Of a DNA stretch of 64,000 nucleotides, positions 23,262-50,876 are shown in pieces. The DNA lies in NCBI GenBank assembly GCA_963666975.2, contig CAXVYR010000003.1, positions 896,001-960,000 on the forward strand, read 5' to 3'. A model generated the notes under the pieces. It saw only the letters and a list, made by a program, of their open reading frames with translations, was not told where the DNA came from and ran no database searches. The stretch's first letter is position 1. The number at the start of each line of letters is the position of its first letter. The position numbers and the translations under genes are program-made. This DNA comes from Terriglobia bacterium (GTDB taxonomy: Bacteria; Acidobacteriota; Terriglobia; 2-12-FULL-54-10).

Positions 23262-24707
23262 ATGACGAAGCGAGAGAGCAAAACAGGAAACGAGAAAACG
23301 ATGCGAAACGAAGAAAGCAGCAACAACCTTCCCCTGGCCTCGGTCCTCCTTCCCGATCCCGGCAAGCCCATTGCGGAACAGGAACTCGCAGTTCTTCTCG
23401 CCATGTGCCTGTTCGGCGAGGCGCGGGGCGAGAGCGACCTGGCTCGCCGGGCCGTGGCGCAACTGCTGCTGAACCGTGCGAGAACCCCCCGGCGCGCCTT
23501 TGGCTCCAAACCCGGAGCGGACTTTGCGGAAAATCTCCGCCGCGTGATCCTGCAACCTTGGCAGTTTTCCTGCTTCAACCCGGGCGACGCCAATCGCGCG
23601 AAATTGCTGCATCCGCTCGATCACGAGGAGCCTCAAGTATGGGAGCGCTGCTTCCGTTGCGCCCAGCAAGCTCTGCAAGCCGGTGATTACAACGCGCAAC
23701 ATAACGCGGACCCGCGCGACGAGCTGACTGCGAACAGCGATCATTACTTCGACGATTCCATCCAACCACCCGCCTGGGCTGACCCTTCCAAGCAAACCGT
23801 GAAGATCGGGCGGCTGAATTTCTACCGCCTCTACCTGTCTCCGCCGGCTGCTGCGCAGACTGACGACTCCGTCGGCCAGTATGGCGCGAGCGCGCACTCT
23901 GCGGCGTTTCTCGAAAAAAGTGAAACTGCCGGCGGCAACCCGCGAGCGCGCCAAGCCGGGAAGAAGCTGCCAAGCCGTGAAGTAGCCGGCGACAGCCCCT
24001 GGAAAGGCGCTGTAGCAGCGGCAACCTTGCCGGGGACATCCTCTTCCGGTTCCCTCCTCACAACGGGCCTCCCTTCTCCGCATCTCCCGGACACCAGCAA
24101 CATCCGCCCGGGACCGTCTCAGCGGCATAAGCGGAAAGGGAGGCTCGCCGCCTTTGTCCTCATGCTGCTCGCGCCGTTCCGCTCGGTGCGGCACAGCGGC
24201 CAGCGAGGCAAACTGGGGATAGCTGCGGCATTGAGCTTGACTCTGCTGCTCGCCGCTTGCACTGACCTGGAGCGCGCTGCCTACCAGACACTGGCCGTAA
24301 CCCGTGCGGAGTACGAGACCGTCCAGCGTCACGTTGCCGAGGCCGCGGTACACGGGCTCATCACCACCCAGCAGTGGAATCGCTTTCAAGCCGAAGGCCA
24401 TCGCTTCATCGACGCGCACAACACCGCCGCCGATGCGTTCGCCCTTTGGAGCACGATGAAAACGGACGGAGACGCCGCACGCTTGGAAGCGATGCTTCAA
24501 ATCCTCCCCCGGCTGATCCGTGAGATCAACCGCCTCGTGGAGAGCTTCCAGGAAAAACCGGGGTCGGGAGTAAACAGTCAGGAGCCGATGGCCGGAAGTG
24601 CGCTAGTGCTGCCACCGGCAAAAACGCCTGTCCCAAGCTTGGTGAAACAAAGTTTTGTGAAACAAAGACTGATTAAACAAAGACTGGTGAAACAACGATG
24701 GCTTTGA
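23262..24707 (+). CDS. SleB/Hydrolase_2-type endolysin, in frame with a downstream lipoprotein-like domain
   Basis: LFGEARGE, AVAQLLLNR, QPWQFSCFN, DHYF, PAWA, IGRLNFY; lipobox LLLAAC late in the ORF. Confidence 0.75.
   Translation: MTKRESKTGNEKTMRNEESSNNLPLASVLLPDPGKPIAEQELAVLLAMCLFGEARGESDLARRAVAQLLLNRARTPRRAFGSKPGADFAENLRRVILQPWQFSCFNPGDANRAKLLHPLDHEEPQVWERCFRCAQQALQAGDYNAQHNADPRDELTANSDHYFDDSIQPPAWADPSKQTVKIGRLNFYRLYLSPPAAAQTDDSVGQYGASAHSAAFLEKSETAGGNPRARQAGKKLPSREVAGDSPWKGAVAAATLPGTSSSGSLLTTGLPSPHLPDTSNIRPGPSQRHKRKGRLAAFVLMLLAPFRSVRHSGQRGKLGIAAALSLTLLLAACTDLERAAYQTLAVTRAEYETVQRHVAEAAVHGLITTQQWNRFQAEGHRFIDAHNTAADAFALWSTMKTDGDAARLEAMLQILPRLIREINRLVESFQEKPGSGVNSQEPMAGSALVLPPAKTPVPSLVKQSFVKQRLIKQRLVKQRWL
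24639..24698 (+). repeat. 15-bp tandem repeat x4 (encodes xxKQx)
   Basis: ttggtgaaacaaagt tttgtgaaacaaaga ctgattaaacaaaga ctggtgaaacaacga. Confidence 0.85.
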
Positions 24708-24890
24708 GCGAAAAACAATTGCAATTGATCGAGGAAGGTATCCGCCTGGCGCTGGCTGCCGTATTGGCGGCGGTCCGGGCAGCCGGTGATGACCGAGGAG
24801 ATTGACTGGAACTCGGTGCGGATCACCGAGACGCCGGAGATGGCTCTGGCAAGGGCGCGCCGCGCGAAGCAACTGCGGCCGGCAGATTAA
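24698..24890 (+). pseudogene. Small hypothetical lysis-region protein, apparently frameshifted
   Basis: MALSEKQLQLIEEGIRLALAAVLAAVRAAG then EEIDWNSVRITETPEMALARA in another frame. Confidence 0.45.
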
Positions 24891-24913
24891 CGGCTCTTCC
24901 AAGCCGCAACTAA

Positions 24914-24970: not shown

Positions 24971-25456
24971 ATGCTTGCCCAAACACAGAAGACGGCAATG
25001 AATCAGCAACCCATCCCGCAACCCATCCCGCAACCGGCCTCCCCCGGCCTCGTCTCCGGCGGCCTCAAAAAAGCCGCCGGACCGGCAGCCGGAGCCGTTG
25101 TCGGCACCTCGGTCATTGTCCTGCTGGTGGAGCTGGCCCGTTCGGGCGCGCTGGCGCAATACGCGGACTTGCTCGCGCCGCTTCTCGGATGGGGACCCGG
25201 ACTGTTCATCCTGATGGGCTTCCTCTGGCTGGCGCACAGCTACGCGCCCCCGCTGATCGAATCTCAGCGCTCCACCGCCACGGCCTTGCAGAAGCTCGCC
25301 GACACGGTGGAATACAACGCCGGCAGCCAGCACGATCTGGTGCTGGCCATGCAAGTGAACTCGGACAAACTCGAGCAGGTGCGCAACACCGTTGCCGACC
25401 TGCAAGATCACGTACAGCAACTGAAGGAGGAGTGGCGTAATGGCCGAACGCAGTGA
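24971..25456 (+). CDS. Two-TM plus coiled-coil protein (holin-like or Mu gp25-like)
   Basis: Two hydrophobic helices then a heptad tail; lies between lysin and packaging genes. Confidence 0.5.
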   Translation: MLAQTQKTAMNQQPIPQPIPQPASPGLVSGGLKKAAGPAAGAVVGTSVIVLLVELARSGALAQYADLLAPLLGWGPGLFILMGFLWLAHSYAPPLIESQRSTATALQKLADTVEYNAGSQHDLVLAMQVNSDKLEQVRNTVADLQDHVQQLKEEWRNGRTQ

Positions 25457-25757
25457 GCCAAGACCTTCTTTGAAGCACGACTTCCGGCGGGGGGAAATCG
25501 TCTGGGTGCTGAAGCAGGACTATCCCCACATGGTCACCTTCCGCCACCTGCAACTGGCTTTGCGGGACCGCAACATCCCTCTCTCGCAAAGGGACATGGA
25601 AGGCTATCTCAGTTATCTCGAGGAGGGCGGCTTCGTGCGCTGCAAGCGGCGCTACGACGAGAAGGAGTCGCGCGACAGGATTCTGGCTGCTTCGCTCACC
25701 GGACGCGGGATTCTGCTGCTCGACAAAAAAATTACCGACGCCGGAGTGCGCTTCTAA
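25440..25757 (+). CDS. Small winged-helix protein (Mu gp26-like position)
   Basis: RRGEIVWVL...YLSYLEEGGFV...SLTGRGILLL pattern; synteny. Confidence 0.6.
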   Translation: MAERSEPRPSLKHDFRRGEIVWVLKQDYPHMVTFRHLQLALRDRNIPLSQRDMEGYLSYLEEGGFVRCKRRYDEKESRDRILAASLTGRGILLLDKKITDAGVRF

Positions 25758-25868: not shown

Positions 25869-26513
25869 ATGCCCAAACAGCAACAATTCGCCGTCGAGAA
25901 GCTGAGCGAGGCTGCGCAAGCTCTCATGCACCAGATACTCGACCAGCAGGCATCGCCCAAATCCATTGCCCGCGCCTTGCGGGAGCGGACCGGAAAACAC
26001 ATCTCCTCTGCGGCGATTACCCGTTACGCCGCCGATTACTGGGAGCAGCAACAGAAACGGCAGCAGGCGCGACAGCGGACCGACGCCTTGATCGAACGGG
26101 CCCGGCAGCAAGGTTACGAAATCTCCGCGTTGCTGCGCGCGGCGGTTCTCGAAGCATTTACTCAAACCCGCCGCAACGGCCCTCTCAAGAAAATCAGCCC
26201 GCTGCAACTGGAGTCCGCCGAGCGGAAGCGGAGGGAGCTGGCGCTCAAGGAAGAACAGGTGTGGCTCACCGGACGGCGCGTGAAAGTCTTCGAGCAAGGC
26301 TGGGAACTCAAGCGCAAAAAGGCGCAAGCGGATTTCAAAAAGCTCGACCGCAAAGCGAAGCTGGGCGAATCGCTGACAGCCGGCGACGTGAGACGAATCC
26401 GGGAGATTTACGAGATCTATGACGAATGGCAGCCGGAACCAGACGAGACCGCAACGGATGAAACCTATGGAAACTCGCAAGAAATCGAAGCCAGTGAAAT
26501 CCCGAAAGCCTAA
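25869..26513 (+). CDS. DUF3486/Mu gp27-like protein, probable small terminase
   Basis: FAVEKL...ISSAAITRY HTH; ends IREIY; directly precedes TerL. Confidence 0.7.
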   Translation: MPKQQQFAVEKLSEAAQALMHQILDQQASPKSIARALRERTGKHISSAAITRYAADYWEQQQKRQQARQRTDALIERARQQGYEISALLRAAVLEAFTQTRRNGPLKKISPLQLESAERKRRELALKEEQVWLTGRRVKVFEQGWELKRKKAQADFKKLDRKAKLGESLTAGDVRRIREIYEIYDEWQPEPDETATDETYGNSQEIEASEIPKA

Positions 26514-28152
26514 GGCTGCTGCGCAGACTCCTTCAGCGCGAGCACTCACGCAGCGGCAGTTCCCGAAAAACGCGAAATTGCCGGCGGCAGTCCCTCTTTA
26601 TCCTTACCAGAAGCGATGGGTCATGGACGACTCGCGCTTCAAGATTGCGGTCAAGTCCACTCAAATCGGCTTCAGCTTTGCCGCCGCGCTCGAAGCCGTG
26701 CTGGACTGCCTCGAAAAGCGGACCCTCTGGATCGTCCTCTCGCGCGGAGATCGTCAGTCGCTGGAGTTTATGCAGAAAGTTCAACAGCATACGAAAGTGT
26801 TGCAGATTGCCATCTCCATGCTCGAAACAGCTTTCTTTGATAGCGCGACCATCCGGAAGCGCGAGGTGAAATTCCCCAACGGCTCGCGCATCATCGCCCT
26901 GCCTGCCAACCCGGCCACGGCGCGCGGCTATACCGGCAATATGATCCTCGACGAGTTTGCTTTCCATCAGCAGGACCGTGAGATTTGGGCCGCCGCCTTC
27001 GGCCGCGTCTCGCGGGGCAACCTGAAGCTGCGCGTTATCTCAACCCCCAACGGTCGACGCGGAAAATTTTTTGAGCTTGCCCAGGAAGCCGGCCTCGCCG
27101 ATGGCGCTCCCGGCAGTCCCCCAACGCCGAATCCGAGCCGCGACCAATCCGAGCCGCGCGCGTCAGCAAGCGGACATAATCCGAGCCGCGACCGCGAGGG
27201 AGCGGTCACTCCCTCCGGCAAAAGACAAGACACAAGCCTCTGGTCCGGGCACTGGTGCGACGTGCATACGGCGGTCCGCCAGGGCTGCCCTATCGATCCG
27301 CAGATGTTGCGTCAGGCCATCGGGGACACCGAGACCTGGCAACAGGAATACGAGTGCATTTTCCTCTCCAACAGGCAGAACTACATCCCCATCGACCTGC
27401 TTGTCGAGTGCGAGCATCCGCAGGCCACCTCATCGCTTCCCGCTGATTGGCAACCAAGTCCCAACCGGGAGTGCTACTTCGGCTATGACGTGGGCCGCGT
27501 GCACGACCTTGCCGTTGTGGCTCTGGTCGAAAAAGTCGGCGATGTCTTTTGGACGCGCGCTCTGCTGGAGATGCCCAACACCAAATTCTCTGCCCAGGAA
27601 AAGGCTCTCAGCGATCTTGTCCCTTTCTGCTTGCGCGGCGCAGTGGATGCCACCGGCCTGGGGCGGGAGATGGCGGAGCGCCTGGCGGAAAAGTTCGCGG
27701 GGCGGGTCGAACCCGTGACCTTTACTGCGGCCGTCAAGCAGGAGATGGCCATACGCATGAAGCGGCATTTTGAGGAGCGCACCCTGCGGATTCCCGACAA
27801 CCGTCCTTTGCGCCGCGACCTGAACGCCGTCAAGCGCATCGTCACCTCGGCGGGCAACATTCGGTTTGACGCCGAGCGCACCGACGACGGACATGCCGAC
27901 CGCTTCTGGGCGCTGGCGCTGGCCCTGCACGCCGCCGGGCACGGCAGCCTCGCAGCCCCTGCCCTCGGGGCGCTCGATAGCGACCCCGAATGGTACGAGC
28001 CGCAGGAACGCAGCTCAATTTACGAGGAGACCGCAGAGCTGCGTCAGAGAACGGTTTCTACCTTGCCGCAAATCCGAGCCGCGACAGTAATGGAGCGGTC
28101 ATTCTCCGAGGCTTTTGCCGCCACAAGACCGAGAGGATTGTTATGGGCTTAA
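26467..28152 (+). CDS. Terminase large subunit, Mu gp28-like
   Basis: LYPYQKRW, KSTQIGFS, PANPATARG, ILDEFAFH, ISTPNG, WQQEYEC, GYDVGR..D, DATGLG, GHADRFWALAL. Confidence 0.95.
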   Translation: METRKKSKPVKSRKPKAAAQTPSARALTQRQFPKNAKLPAAVPLYPYQKRWVMDDSRFKIAVKSTQIGFSFAAALEAVLDCLEKRTLWIVLSRGDRQSLEFMQKVQQHTKVLQIAISMLETAFFDSATIRKREVKFPNGSRIIALPANPATARGYTGNMILDEFAFHQQDREIWAAAFGRVSRGNLKLRVISTPNGRRGKFFELAQEAGLADGAPGSPPTPNPSRDQSEPRASASGHNPSRDREGAVTPSGKRQDTSLWSGHWCDVHTAVRQGCPIDPQMLRQAIGDTETWQQEYECIFLSNRQNYIPIDLLVECEHPQATSSLPADWQPSPNRECYFGYDVGRVHDLAVVALVEKVGDVFWTRALLEMPNTKFSAQEKALSDLVPFCLRGAVDATGLGREMAERLAEKFAGRVEPVTFTAAVKQEMAIRMKRHFEERTLRIPDNRPLRRDLNAVKRIVTSAGNIRFDAERTDDGHADRFWALALALHAAGHGSLAAPALGALDSDPEWYEPQERSSIYEETAELRQRTVSTLPQIRAATVMERSFSEAFAATRPRGLLWA

Positions 28153-29636
28153 CCCTGCTCAATTTGCAAGACGCGCGCCGGGAAGCCGCCGCTGCTTCCG
28201 AGCCGCGACCCAATCCGAGCCGTGACCGTAAGGGAGCGGGTCACCGCCCGCTTGCTGACCCACGCGTCTCTGCGCGCGAAGCCGCCTCGCCGGCCTTGCT
28301 GCTGGGGCAGGACCCGGAAGGTTTCCGCCCCTACGGAATACACCGGCGCTTTGGCTCGGCTCTTACCTCGCGCGATCTCAACCCCGTTCTGCACGCTCGC
28401 ATGCAGCAGGTTGCCTACTACCTCTATCTGGTCAACCCGCTGGCCCATCGCATCGTGGAGTACACCAAGAACTATGTCGTCGGCGACGGCGTGTCGGTGA
28501 AGGCGGAAGACCCGGCGGTTGGGCGCGTAGTCGAATCCTTCTGGCAGGATTCGGTGAACTGCATGGACTTTTCCCTGCCGGAGTTTGTCAAAGAGCTTGC
28601 CATCTTCGGCGAGCAGTGCTGGCTGACGGCGGTGAACCCTCTGAGCGGGCGCGTGCGGCTGGCGTATTTGGACCCGGCTGAGATCGACGCCGTGGAGTGG
28701 GGGGAGCTGGCCGTCGGCGCGGACGCAGCGGGGGCGGGGGGCACGGTTTCCGTCCCTGTCGCCATCCTGCGCCGCCGTGCGCCGGGTGAAACCGAGCCGC
28801 GCCGCTTTCGCATCATCCGTATCGAGGAAGACCCGGAAAGTCCCGACTACGGCCGCCTGGTGGGAGAGTGTTTTTATTTTGCGGTCAACAAGGCGCGCAC
28901 CGCTTCGCGCGGCGTCAGCGACCTGTTTGCCATCGGGGATTACCTCGACGGCTACGACAAAATGCTCTTCGGCCTCATCGACCGCGTCGGCTTCTCGAAC
29001 GCCTTCATCTGGGACGTGCTGCTGAAGGGAGCCACGGAAGAGAACATTCAGCAGTGGCTGAAGGAGCAACGCCCGCCTCGTCCCGGCTCGGTGCGCGCTC
29101 ACAACGAACAGGTGGAATGGAAAACGGTAGCGCCCGACTTGAACGCCCAGGACTTCAATGAAGCGGCCCGCACCATCAAGAACATGAACCTGGCTGGCGC
29201 GGGATTTCCCGAGCACTGGTTTGCCGAGGGTGGAAACGTGAACCGCGCCTCCGCCCTGGAGATGGGCGATCCCACTTTGAAGACGCTGGTCGAGCGGCAG
29301 GGCTTTACCGCCTTCATGATCCGCCAAGTGATCGAGTTCGTCATCGACCAAGCCGTCGCGGCCGGCACACTCCCGGAAACGATAAACCGCAAGTTCCATG
29401 TGCAGATGCCCGAGCTGAGCGTGCGCGACATGGGCAAGGCCGCCCTGGCGCTCTCTCAGGTGGGAACCACGGCGATGGAGATGCGCCGCGCCCAACTGAT
29501 CGACACGGAATCGGCGCAGGAACTGGTGGCCTCGGTGGCCTTGCAACTCGGAGTGGAGATGGACCTGGAAGAGGTTCGACGCAGGCTGGCAGAAGTCGGC
29601 GGTCAGGAAGCAGGAGGCGAAATTGACAAGCGCTAA
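28143..29636 (+). CDS. Portal protein
   Basis: YLVNPLAHRIVE, YVVGDGV, ELAIFGE, RGVSDL; follows TerL. Confidence 0.85.
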   Translation: MGLTLLNLQDARREAAAASEPRPNPSRDRKGAGHRPLADPRVSAREAASPALLLGQDPEGFRPYGIHRRFGSALTSRDLNPVLHARMQQVAYYLYLVNPLAHRIVEYTKNYVVGDGVSVKAEDPAVGRVVESFWQDSVNCMDFSLPEFVKELAIFGEQCWLTAVNPLSGRVRLAYLDPAEIDAVEWGELAVGADAAGAGGTVSVPVAILRRRAPGETEPRRFRIIRIEEDPESPDYGRLVGECFYFAVNKARTASRGVSDLFAIGDYLDGYDKMLFGLIDRVGFSNAFIWDVLLKGATEENIQQWLKEQRPPRPGSVRAHNEQVEWKTVAPDLNAQDFNEAARTIKNMNLAGAGFPEHWFAEGGNVNRASALEMGDPTLKTLVERQGFTAFMIRQVIEFVIDQAVAAGTLPETINRKFHVQMPELSVRDMGKAALALSQVGTTAMEMRRAQLIDTESAQELVASVALQLGVEMDLEEVRRRLAEVGGQEAGGEIDKR

Positions 29637-31963
29637 GTTACAAGTGACAAGGGACAAGAATTCATCACCCATCACTCGCCACTCGTCACTTTCTATCGTC
29701 GAAGCCACACTTGCCAGTGGAGCGCTGGTCGAAAGCCCTTCCAACGGCGGACCCGCGGGCATGAAGTGGCGTGTACGGATCTTTGAATACTGTCTCTCCA
29801 AGAACCGCTATCCCTATCCGGCTGCTGCGCAGACCGGCTTTGCGCGAGCGCGCCTAGCCCCGACCTTTGACCACTTGCCGGTGGCCGTGCCTTTGAAGTG
29901 GACCCTGCGCTCGGCCCGGGAGGCATTGCGCCACCTGGAGGGAGCGCGCTGCTTCGCCGACCATTCTCTCGATTCCCCGCCCGGCTGCTCGCCGGGCCGC
30001 AGCGTCCGCGACCTGGTTGGTTTTTACTCGGATGCCGCGATGGGTCCGCGCGGTCCCGAGGCCACGCTGACACTGCTGGAAAGTGACGGCTGGGCCCGCG
30101 CCAAGCTGCTGGCCGCGTGGCATGCGGGCCGCCCGGACCTGATCGGTTTCAGCGTGGACGCTGTGATCGGCGTTCGCCCCGTGGGCGAGGGCGGGTCGCG
30201 TGTGCTCGAGGTCGAGCACATCGCCGCCATCCACAGCGTGGACATGGTGAGCGCGGCATCGAGCGGCGGCCGCGCCATCGACATTCTGGAAAGTAACGTC
30301 GAAAGCAATGTAGAAAGCAATTCCGACGGCGGTCTTCCGGAAAGATTTATCGTTCGGTCAATGCAGATAAGTTCCCAGGAGGGAAACAGCGAAAGAATTC
30401 GCAGAAAAGGAGCAACCATGAAGGAAGAAATTGAACGATTGCTGGAGGCGCTCCGTCGTACGGGCGGAGAAGTTGCCGGCGGCCCCCTGGGGCGCTTGCA
30501 GGCAATGCTGGAAGCGGAGCTGGCTAAGCCGGAGGTGGATGCAGGCCGTGTCCTGGCGGCCCTGGCGGACTGGCTCTCCTCGCCGGACACAAACCTCTCG
30601 CCGGAAACGGCACAAGAACAAGTGCACGAACAAATAAATGTCCTGCGCCAGCGGATCAGCGAGGCCGTCAGGCAGCAGCAAGCGGCCGAGGGGCTTTCTC
30701 TGCTCGATAGCAAACTGGCCGGCTCCCGTTTGCCCAAGCCCCTGGCCAGCCTGGTAGCCAGCCGCTTCCCATTCGGCCAGCCGGTTGGTGATCGGCCCAT
30801 CAGCGAGCAGGCAGTGGAGGCGGAGATCCATCGCGTGCGCGAGGCCTATGCTGCCCTCTCTCCTGCCGGGAGAGTCATCGAGACGGGGCGCGTCCGCGTC
30901 CTGCAGGAGCCGTGCGACAAAATGCAGACGGCTCTCGACCGTCTGGTCGGTCTTCCGGCGGAGGACTCCTCCATCCCCGCCTTTCGCGGTATTCGCGAAG
31001 CCTACGTCACCTACACCGGCGATGAGGAGATCAGCGGCGCCGCCTCCAACCTGAGAATCCACGAGGAGTTCAATACCGCCGGATTCCCCAATGCCCTGAG
31101 CAACAGCCTGCGGCGGCTGCTGCTCCGGGATTATCAGGAGCAGGATTTTGGGATTGGCCTGATCGCCCAATTTTCGAGCGTCCCGGACTTCCGCACTCAG
31201 GAGCGGATTCGCGTGGGCTACTTCGGCGACCTGCCGACGGTCGACCCGGAGGCGGCGGACTACGACGAGCTCACCGCTCCGACGGATGAGAAGGCCAGCT
31301 ATTCCGTGGTCACTTTCGGAGGACTGGTCACCGTCACCCGCAAGATGATTATCAATGACGATCTCGGCACCGTTCCCAAAATCGCGGGGCGCCTGGGGCG
31401 CTCTGCCCGCCGAACGCTGGCTCAGCGCGTCTTCAATCTGATGATCAACAACGGCCTCATCTACGACAGCGTGGTTTGGTTCCACTCCACCCACGGAAAC
31501 CTGGGATCGACTGCTCTTTCGGCGGCCGAGCTGGACGGGGCGCACCGCCATGCGGAACCGCACCGAGAAGGACAGCGGCAAAAAGCTGGGGATCGGCCCC
31601 CATGTTCTGGTGGTGCCGAACGAACTGGAGGGGCTGGCCCGGCAGGAGAACGAGAGGCAATATGTCGACGCCAGCTTCACCCCCAACCGCGTGCGTTTTT
31701 TATTCGGCCCCTCCAGCGAGCGCGTCGTCGTCTCTCCGCTGCTCACCGACACCAACGATTGGTACGTCTTCGCCAGCAAAGAGGAGGCGCCCACGGTGGA
31801 GGTCGGATTCCTCCAAGGACGGCAGGAGCCGGAGTTCTTCCTGGCCGACAACCCGGCCTCGGGCACGGTCTTCACCAGCGACCGCATCCGGTACAAGGTG
31901 CGCCACGAGCACGAAGCCGTAGTCATCGACTATCGCGGCGCCTACAAAGAAGTGGTGGCTTAA
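29623..31963 (+). CDS. Prohead protease-scaffold-major capsid fusion (Mu gpT-like capsid); frameshift at about 31540
   Basis: CFADH, RSVRDLVG, IGFSVD, SVDMV protease motifs; VPDFR, TFGGLVTVTRKMIINDDLG, FHSTHGNL; the C-terminus LVVPNELE...YKVRHE..VIDYRG lies in ORF 31550-31963. Confidence 0.85.
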
Positions 31964-32126: not shown

Positions 32127-32588
32127 ATGGCAAGGACAGCAAGAGAGGACAACCTGGCCCTGCGCGGAGCATTGATCGTGGAGCTTCCGGCGGGCGCGGC
32201 AGTGGCGGCGAATGACGCACTCTACCTGGATTCCAGCGGGAAGGTGCAGAAGCTCACCTCGGCGCAGGAAGACAACCGCATCGGAGTGGCACAGAACGCC
32301 GCTGCGCTGGATGAAACGGTGCGCGTCCAGGTAGCGGGCAAATGCACCTGCGTGGCCGACGCAAGCATCTCTATCGGCGACCGCGTCGGCGCGCCGCCCA
32401 CAACGGCGGGCCGCGTGGCTACGGCCGCGAATACCCTGACGGTCGCTTCCGGCGGCACAGCGGTGACTTCTTCCTCCGCCAACGGGGCCATTGTGACCGG
32501 AGACCCGGTCGTAAGCCGCGTGCTGGGCCTCGCCCTCACGACGGCGGCTTCGGCAGGCGACAACATTACGGTGCTGCTGACACTGTGA
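32127..32588 (+). CDS. DUF2190-like capsid cement/decoration protein
   Basis: IGVAQNAA...V.VQV.G, ISIGDRV, LGLALTTAASAGDNITVLL; follows capsid; strong SD. Confidence 0.75.
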   Translation: MARTAREDNLALRGALIVELPAGAAVAANDALYLDSSGKVQKLTSAQEDNRIGVAQNAAALDETVRVQVAGKCTCVADASISIGDRVGAPPTTAGRVATAANTLTVASGGTAVTSSSANGAIVTGDPVVSRVLGLALTTAASAGDNITVLLTL

Positions 32589-34494: not shown

Positions 34495-35550
34495 ATGGCC
34501 TTCACGGAACCGAGTCATGATTATGAACTGTTATGGCGCTTCTCCACCAACCGCCAGACCACGCTGGGGACGCCGCTGGCCGACGCGGACTTGCCGCTTT
34601 CGGCGCTGATCTCCGGCTTTGACGCCGGCAAGCTCGCGCACCGGATGATCTCCGACGCAGACCGTTTCGGCAAGGGACATCCTTATGCCACCAGCCACCG
34701 CAAGGTGGCGCAAACGACCGCGCTCACCCGAACGCTGGAGTTGAACGACATCTTCGCCGGATGGGCGGCGGCCTTCGCGATGGGCAGCGTCACCACCACG
34801 CAACCCAACGCGGTCAACAATCCCTCCGTCTACGATCACCTCATTCGCTGGTCGGATCTCGCCGTTTCGAAGGTGATGCCCTTCACCACCATCCATGAGC
34901 AGCCCTGGGCGGGGCTGGCGCGCAAGCTGCCGGACCTGGTCGTGGCGAGCTTTGCGCTCAGCGGTCGCGGGCAGGACCCGGTGCAGCTTTCCATCCAAAT
35001 GCTCGGCTCCGGGCGCTCGAGCGACGTCGCTCTGCCCGCCCCCACCCTCTCGACTCCCGCTTATCTCGACAACGGCGGCGCCCTCATCCGTCTGGGACCA
35101 AGCGGAGCAACCGTGGACATCTCCAACCGCGTGGCGGAGTGGAGCGTCGCCGTGCAGGCCAACCCGGATGAGGCCAACGGACGCTTCCCTTCTTCGGGAC
35201 TTTACGTGGACCGCTGGTGGTACGGGCCCAAGCGCACGGCGATTCCGGAGATGACCCTTTTTGTGAACAGAAGTGACACGGACATTCTCGACCTGTTTCG
35301 CAATGACACCGCCCAGGAGCTGCAGATCAACCTCACCGGAGCGGTCATCACAAACGGCCAGCCCGAAATCTACCGTATGGACATGCTCTGGCCGGAGATT
35401 CACTTCACGGCAGCCGAAGACGTAGTGATCGACAACAAGGTCGCCTTCCGCATGACGGTTGCTGAAGACGGCGTATTCCAGAAAGCCGGCAGCGAATATT
35501 TCCAGGTGACGGTGACCAATACAACCGCCGCATACCTGGTGGCGGCATAG
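34495..35550 (+). CDS. Major tail tube protein
   Basis: Strong SD; WAAAFAMG, YDHLI; ends VTVTNTTAAY; no sheath gene present. Confidence 0.7.
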   Translation: MAFTEPSHDYELLWRFSTNRQTTLGTPLADADLPLSALISGFDAGKLAHRMISDADRFGKGHPYATSHRKVAQTTALTRTLELNDIFAGWAAAFAMGSVTTTQPNAVNNPSVYDHLIRWSDLAVSKVMPFTTIHEQPWAGLARKLPDLVVASFALSGRGQDPVQLSIQMLGSGRSSDVALPAPTLSTPAYLDNGGALIRLGPSGATVDISNRVAEWSVAVQANPDEANGRFPSSGLYVDRWWYGPKRTAIPEMTLFVNRSDTDILDLFRNDTAQELQINLTGAVITNGQPEIYRMDMLWPEIHFTAAEDVVIDNKVAFRMTVAEDGVFQKAGSEYFQVTVTNTTAAYLVAA

Positions 35551-38733: not shown

Positions 38734-38826
38734 AATCAGGGCCGCCAGAGCCTGCCCCGAGCAAAGTCGAGGGGTGAGGGAGCGGTGCCTAGTCGCTAGC
38801 TTGACGCGCGCGGTTCGGAATTAGAT

Positions 38827-39960: not shown

Positions 39961-42189
39961 ATGCCGGTTAGCACAACCAACACGGACATCCTGACCGCCT
40001 CGCTGGGCAAACCGTTAGTCCTGGCCTACGGGCGGCATTTGGTGGGCGGGAACGTGATCCTCAAAGACGAGACCGACGCCGACCACACCATCCTGTTCAT
40101 TGCCCTGGGCGAGGGCGAATGGGACTCGGTGGAGGAGTTGTACCTCAATGAAAAGGCGCTGACCGAGATCGAGGACTTCCATTTCCATCCCGGCATCGAC
40201 GGGCAGATCAGCTCGAACGGCACGCTCGATCCGGAGGGGCTGACCGGCGACCAGAAGGCGGATATGCTCACCCCGCCGGGCGTGCAGGGATTGACGTTCT
40301 CCCGCACGGCCTACATCGCGCTGAACGCGCCGTTCGACGTCTTCGCGCCGGGGCCGGAGATGATCGTGCGGGGAATCTTCAAGACCCGCAAGGTGCGGTT
40401 CTTTGACGCGAACGGTGTTCAAACCGGCTACGGGTACTCGGACAACCCGGCGTGGCAGATCGCGGATCTGCTGACGATGGTGCGCGGGCTTTCTGATTCG
40501 CGGATCGACTGGGCCAGCTTCAAAGCATCCGCAGATTATGCAGATGAATTGATTTCGATCAATGGAGAGAATGTCAAGCGGTTCGTCTCGCACGTCGCCT
40601 TCACCGAAGAGGTGGACTTCGACCAGGCGCTGCAGGCGATCCTGGCCACCTGCCGCGGGCATCTGCTGGACACCGAAGGGACGATCAAGCTCAGGATCGA
40701 CCAGGCGCGCAGCTCCATATTCGATTTCGATATGAACAACATCATCGACGCCACGTTCTCGGCATGGTGGAAGGATACGCGCTCGGTGGCGAACCGGCTG
40801 GAGCTGAGCTTCCGCGACCTGGACAACAATTTCGCCGTCTCAAACAAGCTCTGGAACCACGAGCCGCAGCAGGCGCGGACCGGGCGAGTGATCGCCGCAA
40901 AGCTGCACCTCGGCAACGTCGCGCAGCACCAGGCCGAGCGGATCGGGAACTACCTGCTGACCCGCGCCATCGACAACAACCAGTTCTGCCGCTTTCGCTC
41001 GACGCAGGCGGGCTTCGCCGTGATGCCAGGGGATGTGGTGCGGGTGAAGCACGACGCCGCTCCCTGGGGCACGGCGCCGGGCGATTCGCTGTTTGAGACT
41101 TTCGAGGTCCTGGAAGTGACGGAGTTTCCAGATGAAACGCGCGAGATGGCCTGCCGCCTCTACAACCCGAACACTTATCCGGACACGGCCGGGCCCTCGC
41201 AGAACCTGGTGGGAACGACGGTCCGCAGGCGGCCGCCCGCGCCGGAGAAGCCGCCCATTTGGAACCTCTCGGCGGACCTCGGCGGAAATCTGCGGCTGAG
41301 CTTTGCCATTCCGAACAATGCCGACTATCGCACGGGTGATCTGATCTTGCTGGCCGACGAAGAACTGACGCGCATCACGACGGCGCTCTCTGCCACTTAT
41401 TTTCCAGGCGACACAACGATTGCAGTGAGCAGCTCGGCGGGATTTCGCGTGGGGGACTTCATCAACATCGACGCCGAGGTTTTGAAGCTGGTGGGGCCGG
41501 GAGTGGCAAATGTGGAGCCGACCTCAAACACATGGGAGGTGGCGCGGGCACAGAAGCTGACCCAAGAGGACTCCGCTGGAACGAATGCTCCGGTGTACCG
41601 CCTGACAGAGCGGCGGCTTCAGTTTGCCTTGCCGCCGGGATTTTCTCTCGCCCATCCCACGCTCGATCTGGCCAACGGCCCCTATTACGTCATTCATTTC
41701 CGTCCGGGCCGCCTGCGGATATTGCACGCCGCGCTGGAGCTTACAGGGCTGGGCGGCGTCTCGGAACCTGTCGAGCAAATGTTTGCCATCTTCGGAGCCT
41801 TTGAGCCGTTCGTCTTCGGGACGCTGCCGGGCCTGCGGACCTCCGCTGGCGGGCTGGCCACCATACAGATTCCCGGACCGCTGGCGACCGGCGAGGACCT
41901 GGCGATGCCGCTGGTGCTGCCCGCGGAGGCAAGCATCGGGCTGATCTCCGGACGAGTGGCGCGGACTCCCCTGGGCCAGCAGATTCAATTTCAGGTGAAG
42001 ATTGACGGAGCTGTCTACGGACCCACCGGCGTGATCCCGGTGCAAAATCAGGGTCTCGCTTCCGGCACGAACATCTTTATTTCCGGGTCACAGAAAGGGA
42101 ATGCAGGCGGAAGCGAGGTTTCCGTCAATCTCACGCAGGTGGGAACGACCGATCCTGGAGAGGACTTTACGCTTTCTGTGTGGTTCTGA
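39961..42189 (+). CDS. Tail tip/central fibre protein (gpJ-like, Phage-tail_3-like)
   Basis: PLVLAYGR, ALGEGE, YSDNPAWQIADLL, IDWASF, PGDVVRV. Confidence 0.85.
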   Translation: MPVSTTNTDILTASLGKPLVLAYGRHLVGGNVILKDETDADHTILFIALGEGEWDSVEELYLNEKALTEIEDFHFHPGIDGQISSNGTLDPEGLTGDQKADMLTPPGVQGLTFSRTAYIALNAPFDVFAPGPEMIVRGIFKTRKVRFFDANGVQTGYGYSDNPAWQIADLLTMVRGLSDSRIDWASFKASADYADELISINGENVKRFVSHVAFTEEVDFDQALQAILATCRGHLLDTEGTIKLRIDQARSSIFDFDMNNIIDATFSAWWKDTRSVANRLELSFRDLDNNFAVSNKLWNHEPQQARTGRVIAAKLHLGNVAQHQAERIGNYLLTRAIDNNQFCRFRSTQAGFAVMPGDVVRVKHDAAPWGTAPGDSLFETFEVLEVTEFPDETREMACRLYNPNTYPDTAGPSQNLVGTTVRRRPPAPEKPPIWNLSADLGGNLRLSFAIPNNADYRTGDLILLADEELTRITTALSATYFPGDTTIAVSSSAGFRVGDFINIDAEVLKLVGPGVANVEPTSNTWEVARAQKLTQEDSAGTNAPVYRLTERRLQFALPPGFSLAHPTLDLANGPYYVIHFRPGRLRILHAALELTGLGGVSEPVEQMFAIFGAFEPFVFGTLPGLRTSAGGLATIQIPGPLATGEDLAMPLVLPAEASIGLISGRVARTPLGQQIQFQVKIDGAVYGPTGVIPVQNQGLASGTNIFISGSQKGNAGGSEVSVNLTQVGTTDPGEDFTLSVWF

Positions 42190-44825
42190 TGGCCAAGACA
42201 ACTTTCCTCAATAACCATAGCGATTTGATCTTCGGGTACGAAGTCGATACTACTGTCACCTCGGCGTCGGCGCTCATGACGGCGGGTGATCCGCTGGCGG
42301 ATCCTCCGGTCCCGCCGGTGCGGATTGGCACCAAGGTTTACCCGGCTTCGATTGGAGGCATTGCCTTCAGCATGCTGCTCGAGATCGGCGGAGTTGGACA
42401 GGTGGTGGTAACTGATGTGGATTCCGATGGAGGGGGGAACTTCTTCACCTATTCGGAGGAGATCACTCCGGGCGCAGGGGCCACCGTCCGCACGCCGTGG
42501 AATCTCTCCGGAACGCTGCTGTTCACGCGGGAGAACAACTCCGTCTCTCTGACCTATTTCATTCCGATAGAGCATGACCTCTATTTCCGCACGCAGAAAA
42601 CAATCGATTCCGGATCGATCAGCGTGACGGTGGATGGGATTTCCGCAGGCACTTTTGATCTTTCCAATCCATCTACTATTTTAGCCTCGGTGCTGCTGAA
42701 GGCGGATGTGCCGAACGGAATCCATACCGTGAAAGTGACGGCGCAAATCTCAGGGGGCGCCGTATTCGTTTACTTCAACGGCTTCGAGCTGCTGGAGCAC
42801 AACGTGGAGACCGGCGGGGAGTTTCTCTACCAGGGGCCACAGGGGTTGCTGGATGATTCCTCGAACAACTTCGTCGGCGATTGGGCCACCGTCACGGGTT
42901 TTGCCTGGACGGCCACCTCCGGCGCCGGCGTCTTTTTCTACTCGCAGCTTGACACCGGCGGCAAGGTGAACGCGCGGTTGCAAAAGACGCCCGACTCCGG
43001 GATCGTCGATGTGTATGTCAACGGCGTCTTGGACCAGACCATTGACCTCTATGCGGACCCGGCGGTAAATCCGTTAGAGATCACGTTGCTCGATAACAAT
43101 GCTCCATCGAACGATCCGGCAGGCCTTTACGAGATCGAGATGCGGCATACGGGAACGAAGAACGCCTCCTCGTCCGGTTTCTTCTTCTACTTCAAATCGG
43201 CTGTGGTGGTTTTCACGCGCACGGATACTCAGGCTCTGCAATTGGCGGCGGACTACCTGAAGCAAGTGGCGGCGATCCGAGGCGACGGTGCCTTCCTGGA
43301 CGCGCGGGACTCCGACATCGTCAATTTCGACGCCAATGCGCTGTATGCCTGCATGGGGCTCTTGGCCGCTTACCAAGCGCTGAACATACAAGGGTATCTG
43401 GACGCGGTGCGCGACTTCCTGACATGGTTCGCGGGACTACAGGTAAATGCGCCCGGCAATTCCTTCGACGATGGCGCATGGAACATCGGCTACCGGGTGA
43501 ACCCCTCGCCGCCTCCGGCGTATCTCCCCGCGCTGGGACCCTACGCGCAACAAGGAGTCAGCGAAATCAAGTGGGTGGATGCGGTGCAGTGCCTTCCGGC
43601 GTTTGTGCTGTGGTGGTATTGGAAGCTCTCCGGGGACACTGCCACAAAGGACGCCCTGCTGCCCAAGTTTCGCAAAGCCGTTGACGGGTTCATCGCCAAC
43701 AACCACGACCCGCAGACGGGCTTTTACTTCTCTTCCTGGCAGAACAAGTCTGGGCCCACGATCTTCCTCTACCACGATGCCGTCCGGCGGTACAGCTCCG
43801 GCGGAACCTTGCTGGAGCAGCACAACGACGGCGAGGAGAGCTTCTTCACCTATTCCGGAGCTTGGTCCTCTTACGCGCCGCAGGGAGCGATTGCGAGCGA
43901 CGAACACTTCACGCTAACCAACCAGGACTACCTGGAGTTCTCGCTCGCCTTGAACAGCGGCGACGAGGTCCGCTGGGTGACGCAAACGGCCTGGGACGTC
44001 GGCATCGCCGAAATCCTGGTCTCCACCGACGGCTCCAACTTCAGCGCGGCGGGAACGGTCGACGGTTACACGAGCACTTTGCTGCTCCAGCAGGAATTCC
44101 TGATCTACACGGCGCCTTCCACGGCAACCTATTGGTTCCGCATCCGGCACAGCGGGACGATCAACGCGGCGGGCAACCTTGCGCCGGGCTGGCAGCGGCT
44201 CGCGAATCGGTTCACCGCCGGACAGACCGACGTGGCGCTCGGCTTGACGGGGCTCTGGATGCTGACACGCTCCGCCAAGTATGCGCATCTGGCCGCCCGG
44301 ATCATCCGGCGATTCGCGGGCCGATATTGGAGCGTTGCCGATGGCCGCTGGCTCATCTCGCTCGACGGCGCTGCGCCGGGAACAGCCAACAATTTCTGGT
44401 ACCCGATGGCGCACGGCTACACGGCCTTTGGACAAAAACAATCCCGCCTGTTTCAGCCGGCCAGCCGTTTGAGCGAGGGATTGCAGGCTCTGGAATCGTT
44501 CCAGGACAGCGAAGGCGGCTTTCAGCCTCCGGGCTACATCGAGGCGGAGCACATCTTCTCGGCGTTTTATGCGCTGGGAGAGAATCAGCTTGCAACGAAG
44601 ACGAATCAGGCTGCGTTTGACCTGGCAAAGGAGCACATCAAAGCCGGGCAATACCTTTTGGACATAGGCGGCGTGCAGGCGGGCGGCGTGGTGTTCAGCA
44701 AGAGGTTTCAGTTTTTGTATACCAACATTTCCGGCTTCGCTTGCATGGCGCTGGCTGGAACGACAAACCCTCTCACGGAGCAGTTGCGTTTCAGCGTCCC
44801 GCGCGTGGCATTGCCGGCGGCATGA
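42189..44825 (+). CDS. Tail-associated protein with carbohydrate-binding-like beta domains and a six-hairpin glycosidase-like helical domain
   Basis: Repeated G.VDVYV.G...T.DL..P modules; ALYACMGLLAAY, FLTWF..Q, WWYWKLSGD helical repeats. Confidence 0.55.
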   Translation: MAKTTFLNNHSDLIFGYEVDTTVTSASALMTAGDPLADPPVPPVRIGTKVYPASIGGIAFSMLLEIGGVGQVVVTDVDSDGGGNFFTYSEEITPGAGATVRTPWNLSGTLLFTRENNSVSLTYFIPIEHDLYFRTQKTIDSGSISVTVDGISAGTFDLSNPSTILASVLLKADVPNGIHTVKVTAQISGGAVFVYFNGFELLEHNVETGGEFLYQGPQGLLDDSSNNFVGDWATVTGFAWTATSGAGVFFYSQLDTGGKVNARLQKTPDSGIVDVYVNGVLDQTIDLYADPAVNPLEITLLDNNAPSNDPAGLYEIEMRHTGTKNASSSGFFFYFKSAVVVFTRTDTQALQLAADYLKQVAAIRGDGAFLDARDSDIVNFDANALYACMGLLAAYQALNIQGYLDAVRDFLTWFAGLQVNAPGNSFDDGAWNIGYRVNPSPPPAYLPALGPYAQQGVSEIKWVDAVQCLPAFVLWWYWKLSGDTATKDALLPKFRKAVDGFIANNHDPQTGFYFSSWQNKSGPTIFLYHDAVRRYSSGGTLLEQHNDGEESFFTYSGAWSSYAPQGAIASDEHFTLTNQDYLEFSLALNSGDEVRWVTQTAWDVGIAEILVSTDGSNFSAAGTVDGYTSTLLLQQEFLIYTAPSTATYWFRIRHSGTINAAGNLAPGWQRLANRFTAGQTDVALGLTGLWMLTRSAKYAHLAARIIRRFAGRYWSVADGRWLISLDGAAPGTANNFWYPMAHGYTAFGQKQSRLFQPASRLSEGLQALESFQDSEGGFQPPGYIEAEHIFSAFYALGENQLATKTNQAAFDLAKEHIKAGQYLLDIGGVQAGGVVFSKRFQFLYTNISGFACMALAGTTNPLTEQLRFSVPRVALPAA

Positions 44826-49276: not shown

Positions 49277-49572
49277 TGTCTCTATACACCAGACTCACTG
49301 GAATTGACCGGGCAGAAAATGAGCCGAAGCTGGCTATCCATTCGCTGTTTGCCTTGCTGTCGGAGCGGAAGCGCGGGCGGCTGACCAATCAACAAGTCCT
49401 CGATTCTTTGGGTCTGTCGGCATTGGAAAAGACCGAGCTAATTGTGCTGGTTGGAAAAATCATAGACAGCACCCTCGATGCAGGCGAGGTGGAAGATGTC
49501 TTACTTTTAGCCGAGCAGGGGGTGCCGCCCTACGACACGGAGGCGGCGGTCAAGTCTCGCCTGGGGGTTTAA
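49276..49572 (+). CDS. Small protein, possible fibre chaperone
   Basis: Coupled by TAATG overlaps on both sides. Confidence 0.55.
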   Translation: MSLYTRLTGIDRAENEPKLAIHSLFALLSERKRGRLTNQQVLDSLGLSALEKTELIVLVGKIIDSTLDAGEVEDVLLLAEQGVPPYDTEAAVKSRLGV

Positions 49573-50876
49573 TGTTGATTAGAAATATACTTTTTCTCAT
49601 CCTGCTGTTTGCGAGCACCGCCCTTGCCGATCTCGGCGCAAAAGTCGGGTCCTTCGCTATATCAACGGGCGCGGCGACAACCACGCAGACCATTTCCGGC
49701 GTCGGATTTCAACCTAAACTCATCATCTTTTGGTGGTCTGGCCGGGTCACTGCTGTTGACGCTGTGGGCCGGGCGACTCATGTTCTTGGACGAGGGGCTA
49801 CTGACGGGACGAATCGATGGGCGAATGCCGGCAGGTCAGCAGATGCCCTTGGAACTTCTGAAACCTCCAGAAGGACTACAAATCTCGCCCTTATTATGGA
49901 CATCGATTCTTCCGGCAACGAAGCCGCAGCAGCCGATATCGACGCGATGCTTACCGATGGATTTCGTATCATCATCGACAACCAATTCGCGTCGGCTTTC
50001 AGGATTCACTATCTCGCCCTGGGTGGAAGCGACATCACGGGAGCGTTTGTCGGAACCTATGATGTGACGGCCGGGACCGGAAACTTCTCCGTGACGGGAG
50101 TAGGCTTTCAGCCAGAGTTTGTGTTCTTTAGCTCGCCTATGGCATCGGATACCGCAGAGGTTGCCGGTACGGATGGTCAAACCGGGGACAATATGGGGGC
50201 CGCTGTATCTTCGACCGCGCGGGCAACCTTGGCCGGATCCAGCTTTGACGCTCTGGGGACTTCAGACACCGCCTCGTATATTTATTCGGGCGAGGCGCTC
50301 TCCGGGATGAGCAGCACATCCTCCATGTCCCGCCGCTACGATTTCGTTTCGATGGACGCAGACGGCTTTACGATTAACAGGGTAGAAAACAATCCCGTTG
50401 TCCAATTCTATGCGGCCTTGGCCGGGCCGAGCTTTACCGTTGGAACGCTCACCACGCAGACGGACACGACGACCGACATCGCAGAGAGCGGCCTCGGCTT
50501 CCAGCCTTCCGCCATCATGTTCTTTTCGGCGGGCAGGGCGGAATCTACGGCGGACACTCCGACCGCCGACGAAATGATAACTATTGGAGCGGGGACGGGC
50601 ACAACGGAGCGCGGGGTCCAGGCAATACGAGATGAGGATAACGTAGCCACCACGGAAGTCACAACGGCAATCGAATTTGATGCGGTGTACGCCAATTTAT
50701 CGTCTGGGGCCATCGCGGGCTTGATGGACATCAAATCCATAGACTCGGACGGATTCACGGCAATCATGGATGACGCCGATCCGAGCGGGATGCTCGTCTG
50801 GTATTGGGCCATTGGAAATCCTCCGGCCATAGGCTTAACCCCGGCGGGGATCATCAACAACCCGCTGGGGTTCTAG
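49572..50876 (+). CDS. Secreted beta-repeat protein (3x GVGFQP...DGFT), last gene of the cluster
   Basis: MLIRNILFLILLFASTALA-D signal; three internal repeats. Confidence 0.65.
   Translation: MLIRNILFLILLFASTALADLGAKVGSFAISTGAATTTQTISGVGFQPKLIIFWWSGRVTAVDAVGRATHVLGRGATDGTNRWANAGRSADALGTSETSRRTTNLALIMDIDSSGNEAAAADIDAMLTDGFRIIIDNQFASAFRIHYLALGGSDITGAFVGTYDVTAGTGNFSVTGVGFQPEFVFFSSPMASDTAEVAGTDGQTGDNMGAAVSSTARATLAGSSFDALGTSDTASYIYSGEALSGMSSTSSMSRRYDFVSMDADGFTINRVENNPVVQFYAALAGPSFTVGTLTTQTDTTTDIAESGLGFQPSAIMFFSAGRAESTADTPTADEMITIGAGTGTTERGVQAIRDEDNVATTEVTTAIEFDAVYANLSSGAIAGLMDIKSIDSDGFTAIMDDADPSGMLVWYWAIGNPPAIGLTPAGIINNPLGF

Follow-up and report, generated by a model that had tools for sequence, protein, structure and literature searches.

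A phage virion operon that lies among housekeeping genes and in which no early phage gene is found raises the question of whether it is a decaying prophage or an element kept by its host. We addressed this question for a gene cluster in a 64,000-nt stretch of the genome of a Terriglobia bacterium (phylum Acidobacteriota). The stretch, hereafter the window, corresponds to positions 896001–960000 of contig C3 (CAXVYR010000003.1, GenBank assembly GCA_963666975.2) of a 4.23-Mb genome in four contigs (G000), and the cluster occupies positions 23262–50876 of the window. A preliminary description had presented it as a Mu-derived virion operon and as a candidate gene transfer agent (GTA) or domesticated particle. 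We interpret the cluster as the late region of a Mu-like siphophage that would have lost its early region and become a resident operon, maintained by selection for a benefit to the host and encoding a GTA-like or PBSX-like particle; to this reading we assign a probability of about 0.6. It is built on the following observations: the genes that the cluster contains, the lack of early genes among them, its conserved locus, its co-divergence with the host, and the selection acting on it. The cluster is proposed here as a candidate new GTA.

Gene content, locus, and inheritance of the cluster

The cluster spans 27.6 kb and contains 25 open reading frames (ORFs); according to the ORF listing and the Pfam and PHROG scans, every long ORF lies on the plus strand and the series is uninterrupted. 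The order begins with a cell-wall hydrolase, a membrane protein, a protein of phrog_436, a gp27-like protein, the large terminase (TerL), the portal, a fused protease-capsid, a cement protein, the neck proteins, and the tail tube. It continues with two genes in the chaperone position, the tape measure, the distal tail, hub, and J-like proteins, an 881-aa protein, and five ORFs in the fibre position. The tail is of the siphovirus type. On the left side, 201 bp separate the cluster from a divergent TPR gene (21954–23060, minus strand), beyond which rplU, rpmA, and obg are located; on the right side, ubiD (51232–52980, minus strand) lies at a distance of 355 bp and is followed by an amidohydrolase gene. 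Kinases, a Mur ligase, and similar host genes occupy the farther flanks in the window. This arrangement agrees with the preliminary description, which had placed a one-strand head-neck-tail-lysis set about 200 bp from the TPR gene beside rplU-rpmA and about 350 bp from ubiD. Since the cluster carries conserved TerL, portal, and capsid genes, it is not a tailocin, which is a tail-only particle.

Pfam and PHROG scans of the 25 ORFs detected no transposase, integrase, repressor, or replication family. No tyrosine integrase (PF00589) was found within approximately 50 kb of the cluster in G000 or of its counterparts in G003 and G005, which represent other genera of the same family, and in G044 and G198, which represent two other families of the class; on the G000 contig, the closest tyrosine recombinase is about 56 kb away. 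The Mu-transpos_C model (PF09299) had no match anywhere in G000, G003, and G005, while it did match in G198, G044, and two viral contigs. The PF02914 (Mu DDE_2) model gave no match in five genomes, but its positive control also matched nowhere. For the cluster of G000, the ORF scans and the searches with PF00589 and PF09299 were all negative, in agreement with the earlier statement that no such gene lies in or beside the cluster. The same absence was observed in every relative with readable flanks, namely, G001, G003, G008, and G044, as well as G005 and G006 (left side only). In G044, the copy is flanked by an amidase gene on one side and by genes of a beta-helix protein and a Clp-type ATPase on the other, and the sole Mu-type transposase of this genome is on a separate contig. 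The cluster does not include the MuA, MuB, and repressor genes of a Mu-like transposable phage. It also lacks the integration or transposition, immunity, and replication functions and the variable sites of an active temperate prophage, and its locus is fixed. As in a GTA, virion and packaging genes are present on the chromosome without replication, integration, or excision genes of their own.

The distribution of the cluster was studied with one genome per species, many of the assemblies being fragmented. A TerL search of 60 relatives revealed the gene in 10 of the 13 other species of the window's family (f1), at 39–85% identity. Among 401 genomes of the class, the portal type was found in 7 of 13 family genomes, in one of seven genomes of family f11 (G044), in one of 76 genomes of family f9 (G198), and in no other family, i.e., in 2 of the 387 genomes sampled outside the family. 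Mapping of the window proteins on the fetched contigs showed the order obg-rpmA-rplU-(TPR)-lysin-cluster in G002 and G001, which belong to the window's genus (g1), in G005 (g4), in G006 (g5), and in the closed genome of G003 (g2); the rplU-side locus is therefore common to four genera. The ubiD gene directly follows the cluster in G001 and G003, and in the latter the cluster, 21 kb in size, is wedged between rplU and ubiD.

In G003, G005, G008, and G044, each shared gene forms one full-length ORF, including the protease-capsid gene of 723–861 aa, and in G002 the whole cluster, recovered over two contigs, contains no stops. Pairwise dN/dS values (NG86) of the cluster genes were 0.08–0.53, mostly 0.1–0.3, in five genome pairs, compared with 0.06–0.31 for the flanking host genes; between G000 and the sister species G002, they were 0.085–0.27 for 14 further genes. 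Between genera, dS was approximately 0.9–1.9, which is near saturation. Unselected DNA would be riddled with stops at such distances, and the preservation of about 20 genes without stops therefore argues against neutral decay. The dS values of the cluster were comparable to, or somewhat above, those of the flanking host genes: between G000 and G001, they were 0.48–1.19 in the cluster and 0.43–0.70 in the flanks, and between G000 and G002, 0.13–0.62 (0.85 for the gp27-like gene) and 0.17–0.23, respectively.

The tree of the cluster, based on the membrane protein, the phrog_436 protein, the gp27-like protein, and TerL, was compared with a host tree based on obg, rpmA, and rplU (three genes, unrooted). 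Both trees recovered genus g1 with 100% support and the grouping of g2 with g4 with 92–98% support, and they agreed in the placement of g6. G008 clustered together with G044 on long branches, and minor topology conflicts were observed inside g1. Thus, the two trees are broadly congruent. Together with the rplU-side locus in four genera, this congruence indicates the vertical transmission that is characteristic of GTAs, with the exceptions of G007, of the locus of G008, and of one module of G008, all of which are described below. The dN/dS values likewise indicate purifying selection, except for the capsid gene of G000. The predictions made from the window, namely, that the cluster would be widespread, would always lack early genes, would follow the host tree, and would show dN/dS well below 1, therefore held at the level of the family. 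The proposed long vertical residence under selection is supported by the locus common to four genera, the co-divergence, and the dN/dS values, but not by the copy in G000, in which the capsid gene itself is broken. Similarly, the frames described as largely intact are so in G002, G003, G005, G008, and G044, whereas G000 carries the capsid frameshift.

Phage ancestry and the upstream region

A search of 50,697 phage records identified Alteromonadaceae phage B23 (38%), Rhodovulum phage vB_RhkS_P1 (36%), and phage B3 (32%) as the best TerL matches. All three are Mu-like transposable siphophages, in which TerL is located 13–16 kb into a genome of 33–39 kb. In the annotation of vB_RhkS_P1, an early region that includes two “mobile element” proteins precedes the lysin, gp27, TerL, gp29 portal, F, I, and T genes; when all cluster proteins were compared with this phage by BLAST, only TerL gave a match. 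The portal of the window had one match among cultured phages. In IMG/VR, 12 contigs with a related portal (30–43%, none above 43%) were found, six of which also carry a related TerL, and the longer ones keep the order of portal, protease-capsid, connector, tube, and chaperone genes. Among five long contigs, two carry Mu-transpos_C ORFs of 740–747 aa and none carries a tyrosine integrase.

An apparently complete Mu-like prophage with a related head module was found in G198 (C2, approximately 352700–389600; loci L040–L042). One strand of this region carries a block of small early ORFs, a Mu-transpos_C ORF of 742–754 aa, and a neighbouring ORF of 325 aa, and the other strand carries the late genes. 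The head module is 27–41% identical to that of the window and is located about 10 kb from the Mu-type transposase.

The origin from a Mu late operon, as claimed in the preliminary description, is thus supported by the relations of TerL and by the Mu-type transposases on two of the five long viral contigs, but the head genes are not those of classical Mu. TerL is nearest to Mu-like phages, and the cluster has neither a Portal_Mu nor an F match. The assignment of the gene upstream of TerL to DUF3486/gp27 is only partly upheld, for a PF11985 match exists but its score of 21.3 bits is under the 28-bit cut-off. The portal does not belong to the Mu gp29 type: the window copy has no Pfam match, and some of its metagenomic relatives carry PF05133 instead of Portal_Mu. 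The orthologues of the portal are 47–91% identical, and its metagenomic relatives form about 43 protein clusters at 63–89% identity, followed by a gap down to ≤49%. The C-terminal piece of the capsid protein passes the cut-off of PF10124 (Mu-like_gpT; 28.9 vs. 20.1 bits) but fits PF25209 better. On the basis of the TerL relations, the transposases of the viral contigs, and the G198 prophage, the cluster is best interpreted as the late half of a transposable, Mu-like siphophage whose head module is not of the classical kind.

Elements with a related TerL (44–47%) and partly related tube, hub, and J proteins, but with a different portal and head, were also observed in G027 (C37, L033–L034) and G057 (C1, L030–L032). 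Their gene content indicates further mosaicism among the phage-like elements of the class.

A 9-bp array with a TCGG core was found upstream of the first gene in seven of seven genomes. According to periodicity counts, it comprises 29 units in G001, nine in G005, and seven or eight in G000, G002, G003, G006, and G008; the conserved box that follows it ends in ...CTYRGCTTGYRATG. TRF reported approximately 21–29 copies of the array in G001; with default scoring it did not report the array of the window, which becomes visible by in-phase counting and by alignment to relatives only. In G000, this is the only intergenic array of its kind, and strict arrays in the 1.16 Mb of loci that were fetched are confined to the operon position. 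A scan of positions 21600–26000 for sigma-70 promoters revealed two sites (0.9 expected), both on the minus strand and neither upstream of the operon. The predicted winged-helix protein encoded by the third gene is among the most conserved in the family (71–90% identity; dN/dS 0.10–0.22), with a mean column identity of 72% in an alignment of nine orthologues. Its AlphaFold model (pLDDT 79.5) had PadR-family regulators as the best Foldseek matches (E 1e-4, TM 0.59), which suggests a candidate DNA-binding regulator or packaging-recognition factor.

The history and operation of the cluster could then be reconstructed as follows. The early region, with the repressor, transposase, and replication genes, would have been lost and the operon fixed in an ancestor of most genera of the family; since then, it would have been inherited with the chromosome under purifying selection. 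The simplest pay-off would be a gain of the host from DNA-filled tailed particles that are freed by the operon's own lysis genes. One promoter behind the 9-bp array may drive the operon, with the winged-helix protein or a host factor binding to the array, and a headful terminase of the Mu type would fill the heads. In phage Mu, a phage end marks the Mu DNA for packaging. Because the cluster would not transpose and no phage end is left to mark its own DNA, the heads would be expected to take up chromosomal DNA. The hydrolase, the membrane protein, and a lipoprotein-like domain would release the particles, and the variable distal fibres would set the target range.

Damaged copies, rival explanations, and known systems

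A number of observations weigh against a resident operon under selection, and the most direct of them concerns the capsid gene of G000. The N-terminal piece of this gene runs in frame 1 to about 31539, and the C-terminal piece (137 aa) starts at 31550 in frame 2, the shift being located at 31536–31539. The site reads GACGTGGTGCGC in G002 and GACGGGGCGC in the window, so that G000 is short of two bases, while G003 and G005 read ELDVVRTAMRN in a single frame across it. Logan contigs of sequencing runs were compared with the window over 23001–43000, from which they differ by 1–17 substitutions in 20 kb. In all four runs, from four studies, they span the site without an indel and agree with the window. 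A homopolymer sequencing error was rejected, since the GGGG of the window corresponds to GTGGTG in G002 and is matched by four independent data sets. A programmed frameshift is unlikely because G002, G003, G005, G008, and G044 read the gene in one frame. The comparison indicates that the shift is real, fixed in the species of the window, and younger than its split from G002. The preliminary description had counted a capsid frameshift confirmed by reads as a fixed lesion among the findings that would speak against it, and the shift, present in the four runs and absent in G002, was found to be such a lesion. The G000 copy is probably newly disabled and may no longer make heads. As dN/dS is still 0.085–0.27 since the split from G002, the break appears to be recent.

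Losses and replacements in the relatives point in the same direction. G001 lacks the genes from the portal through the chaperones, and G004 lacks everything from the middle of TerL to the middle of the 881-aa gene; these deleted copies are probably likewise disabled, and the cluster is therefore dispensable in some lineages. Neither TerL nor the portal was found in the three genomes of genus g8 (82–100% complete), which have nothing beside rplU, and in G007 (g6) the 9.3 kb fetched beyond rplU contained no cluster gene. G008 (g7) retains the junction of TPR and cluster, but its block is bordered by the housekeeping genes RNase E/G-RodA-PBP2 on one side and ArgJ-FabZ-LpxA on the other and is not beside rplU. 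This copy (C77, approximately 41600–62300; loci L037–L039) is a mosaic: its lysis, winged-helix, and tail-tip genes are family-like, with 55–78% identity for the genes that flank the foreign module, whereas TerL and the portal-to-chaperone genes are of another lineage, closest to G044 and the viral contig L055. The portal-to-chaperone module is 53–64% identical to that of G044, a member of another family, vs. 36–52% to those of its own family, and TerL is 36–40% identical to all others. The cement gene is patchy, being present in G000, G002, G044, and L055 and not in G003, G005, and G008. The module swap and this patchiness show recombination with other phage lineages. For some cluster genes, dS reaches two- to fourfold the value of the host flanks. 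Finally, the composition of the cluster is atypical, with a GC content of 60.9% vs. 57.7% in the genome and a tetranucleotide distance that ranks at the 99th percentile among 302 windows of the genome.

The cluster also contains repeats of the host. A 30-nt repetitive extragenic palindromic (REP)-like element, of which 97 copies (≤6 substitutions) occur in the 4.23-Mb genome, is present in the window at 24912, 27178, 28071, 28212, and 62160. TerL carries an in-frame REP-derived insert at 27144–27208, consisting of one copy and an adjacent variant, in a variable linker and a second copy at 28071–28100 in the 3′ part of its ORF; the N-terminal region of the portal carries a copy at 28212–28241. 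Translated in frame, the element gives NPSRDREGAV peptides inside both proteins. The heavy load of host-type repeats noted earlier is real insofar as the repeats are present, but it amounts to four copies and a variant within 24.9–28.2 kb.

The capsid frameshift of G000, the large deletions in G001 and G004, the absence from g8, the atypical composition, and the REP elements in the TerL and portal ORFs would all be natural in an ordinary defective prophage remnant, old, slowly decaying, and without a function for the host. Such a remnant would not be expected to keep about 20 genes full length and stop-free in G002, G003, G005, and G008 despite near-saturated dS of approximately 0.9–1.9, with dN/dS of 0.08–0.53 and the catalytic motifs of TerL preserved; moreover, the REP inserts are in frame, in variable regions, and common within the genus. 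This explanation is therefore considered very unlikely. The open frames could instead be the result of selection on phages, if the cluster repeatedly recombined with infecting Mu-like relatives, or were activated by them and used as a helper-dependent structural module, and were renewed in this way from functional phage genes. The replaced head-to-tube module and foreign-lineage TerL of G008, the cement gene common to G044 and L055 but not to G003, G005, and G008, the genes with dS above the host flanks, the minor topology conflicts in g1, and the related Mu-like phages in the class (G198) and in viromes are all in line with this view. It is distinctly unlikely, as the cluster tree tracks the host tree for most genes and genomes, with dS within about two- to fourfold of the flanks; no viral contig is closer than 43% (portal), G000, G003, and G005 have no Mu-type transposase, and replacement was seen in only one of five genomes compared gene by gene.

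It is also conceivable, though unlikely, that the particle was domesticated for another purpose, such as the killing of competitors in the manner of PBSX, with DNA packaging as a by-product. The distal fibre module (44741–50876) differs from genome to genome, as is typical of receptor-binding genes under conflict, the operon includes lysis genes, and PBSX of Bacillus subtilis provides a precedent. Conversely, conservation of the terminase and portal equals that of the tail genes, as would be expected if it is important that heads are filled; the present data do not separate killing from the GTA reading. The reading as a resident operon selected for a benefit to the host is preferred here, and in it the damaged copies would represent losses in individual lineages.

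The genetic basis of GTAs has been established for only a few lineages. The cluster resembles the RcGTA type of Alphaproteobacteria (Rhodogtaviriformidae) in being a chromosomal head-tail cluster without replication or integration genes, vertically inherited under purifying selection and with some incomplete copies. In addition, PF09931 and PF13550, found in the hub and J-like proteins, likewise occur in RcGTA g13 and g15. Unlike RcGTA, the cluster belongs to another phylum, has a Mu-like siphophage ancestor according to TerL, and carries a fused protease-capsid. It is also larger (21–27.6 kb), with the lysis genes inside the operon and a winged-helix gene and a 9-bp array at its head. PBSX is a chromosomally fixed, non-replicating, species-wide element of Bacillus that lyses its producer and packages host DNA, features that the cluster would share; it is myovirus-like and has its own repressor and late regulator. 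The cluster differs from it in its Mu-like ancestry and in that no repressor was found.

With the Mu-like siphophages B3, vB_RhkS_P1, and B23, the cluster shares TerL (32–38%) and the siphovirus-type tail, and with vB_RhkS_P1 also the late order of lysin, small genes, gp27, TerL, portal, head, and tail. It differs from them in the lack of the early transposase A/B and repressor genes, in a portal that is not Portal_Mu, in the lack of a match to F (virion morphogenesis), and in the presence of protease and capsid in one gene. The uncultured Mu-like phages on the IMG/VR contigs of L056 and L062 and the G198 prophage are similar in the order of TerL, portal, protease-capsid, connector, tube, and chaperone genes, at 21–43% identity (27–41% for G198). 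However, they carry Mu-transpos_C ORFs of 740–754 aa and, in G198, small early ORFs, which are absent from the cluster and its relatives in the family.

A taxonomic treatment gives formal recognition to three GTA groups that were exapted independently; none of the host groups named for them is acidobacterial, and the term “Mu-like” does not occur in that text (PMC9662315). A survey of 24 acidobacterial genomes reports prophages identified by VirSorter and PHASTER and refers to gene transfer agents in general terms only (PMC5900883). In the available portions of the literature on GTAs in Acidobacteria, Mu-like GTAs, and new GTA groups, no element of this kind is described. If the GTA reading is correct, the cluster would represent an independent domestication from another type of phage and a possible means by which genes are exchanged in a phylum that is common in soil and difficult to manipulate. 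Its intact, frameshifted, deleted, and module-swapped copies form a natural series that could show how such elements are kept or lost, and the 9-bp array and the winged-helix protein offer handles on the takeover of phage late-gene control by the host.

Gene inventory and other elements

The features of the cluster are listed in the table.

Table. Features of the virion cluster and its upstream region in the window
Feature	Position	Strand	Evidence
Degenerate 9-bp tandem array	23130..23213	+	Eight in-phase TCG units, of which five are TCGG; immediately precedes the operon
Conserved promoter/leader box (candidate)	23214-23261	+	Ends ...CTCGGCTTGTATG; upstream alignment of six genomes
Lysis gene, N-terminal SleB-type cell-wall hydrolase (aa 56-188)	23262..24707	+	PF07486 E 6.6e-10; phrog_938 endolysin
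Membrane protein, holin position	24971..25456	+	Hydrophobic segments in translation; no family match; 74-89% identity in family
Winged-helix (PadR/MarR-like fold) 105-aa protein	25440..25757	+	phrog_436 E 1.4e-6
gp27-like (DUF3486) protein, putative small terminase	25869..26513	+	PF11985 E 3.8e-4, 21.3 bits vs. 28 cut-off; phrog_426 E 4e-4
Large terminase TerL	26419..28152	+	PF03237, PF17289; phrog_5909 E 1.2e-47
Portal	28143..29636	+	phrog_10963 E 5e-39; no Pfam match in window copy
Fused prohead protease-scaffold-major capsid, frameshifted at 31536-31539	29623..31963	+	PF25209 on both pieces; phrog_4523 “major head and protease protein”
Cement/decoration-like head protein	32127..32588	+	PF09956 E 9.3e-8; phrog_673
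Three neck/connector-position genes: 224 aa, Neck1/tail completion 172 aa, 147 aa	32735..34452	+	Middle gene phrog_5 E 7.1e-10; order kept in relatives and viral contigs
Tail tube	34495..35550	+	PF18906 E 4.6e-7; 76-94% identity in G003, G005, G002
Two tail-assembly-chaperone-position genes (248, 132 aa)	35560..36732	+	Position between tube and tape measure; no family match; kept in relatives
Tape measure, 434 aa	36733..38037	+	PHROGs 3547, 167, 3336, 973
Distal-tail-position protein (216 aa) and baseplate hub N-terminal domain protein (236 aa)	38083..39537	+	PF09931 E 5.6e-7; phrog_778
J-like central tail fibre/tail tip protein	39961..42189	+	PF13550 E 1.4e-8; phrog_31 E 1.1e-30
Tail-associated 881-aa protein	42180..44825	+	No family; 59-84% identity in G001, G002, G003, G005, G008, G004
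Variable distal module: ORFs of 632, 134, 759, 98, and 434 aa	44741..50876	+	No PHROG family; Pfam matches sub-cut-off only

The C-terminal part of the lysis gene, which is the piece kept in G003 and G008, contains a lipobox-like LLLAAC motif. The gp27-like gene is the fastest-evolving of the core genes, with an identity of 39–61% and dN/dS of 0.36–0.49. A motif alignment showed that the KSxxxGxS motif of TerL, a lambda-like deviant Walker A, the ILDEF (Walker B) and STP motifs, and the nuclease Asp motifs are kept in all eight bacterial clusters. Within the stretches covered by each sequence, they are also kept in Rhodovulum phage P1 and in the viral contigs related to the cluster. For the 881-aa protein, assignments to GH76, malectin, or pectate-lyase-like proteins were rejected as too weak (Atlas embedding-search scores ≤0.82). 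The ORFs of the distal module are absent in G001 and G003 and partly common to G005, G008, G004, and G044, with partial N-terminal matches; they probably encode fibres and receptor-binding proteins.

A dispersed repeat with raised contig depth (38741–38785) sits between the distal-tail-position gene and the hub gene. A tRNA-Ser(AGA) of 96 nt predicted by ARAGORN at 38710–38805 overlaps this repeat and is probably false; no Rfam family reached its gathering score in the whole window. At position 24797 (intergenic), the contigs of three of the four runs are one base shorter than the window, which may be an assembly error or strain variation, and in one run (X6) 17 bases are deleted at 28197, at the REP-bearing start of the portal ORF.

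A second cluster of Mu-type late genes was observed in family f5 (loci L035, L036, and L091–L098; genomes G033, G017, G025, G041, and G049). It is of the classical Mu type, with gp27 above the PF11985 cut-off, a TerL 43–55% identical to that of the window, Portal_Mu (PF06074), a capsid, and a long tail protein, and it is syntenic over approximately 30 kb in four genomes. Its portal was found in 60 of 72 sampled f5 genomes (55 of 67 when the unpublished genomes G099, G253, G293, G349, and G389 are left out), in two of the 70 f6 genomes, and in no further family of the class. A search of five f5 genomes for Mu-transpos_C gave no match. The f5 cluster is possibly another domesticated element. We tentatively suggest, at somewhat less than even odds, that Acidobacteriota harbor at least one, and perhaps two, unrecognised GTA families independently domesticated from Mu-like transposable phages, one being the cluster of f1, which would be controlled through the array and the winged-helix protein, and the other that of f5. 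In that case, transposable phages, which package host DNA by headful from chromosomal sites, would be a recurrent raw material of GTAs, and a dominant soil phylum would possess a dedicated vehicle for DNA exchange.

Outside the cluster, the window contains two inverted ORFs of equal length (433 aa) at 2373–3674 (minus strand) and 9618–10919 (plus strand), of which the first is an IS256-type transposase (Transposase_mut). The pair brackets the genes of a Ser/Thr kinase-TPR protein and of a Na+/H+ exchanger in an arrangement resembling a composite transposon.

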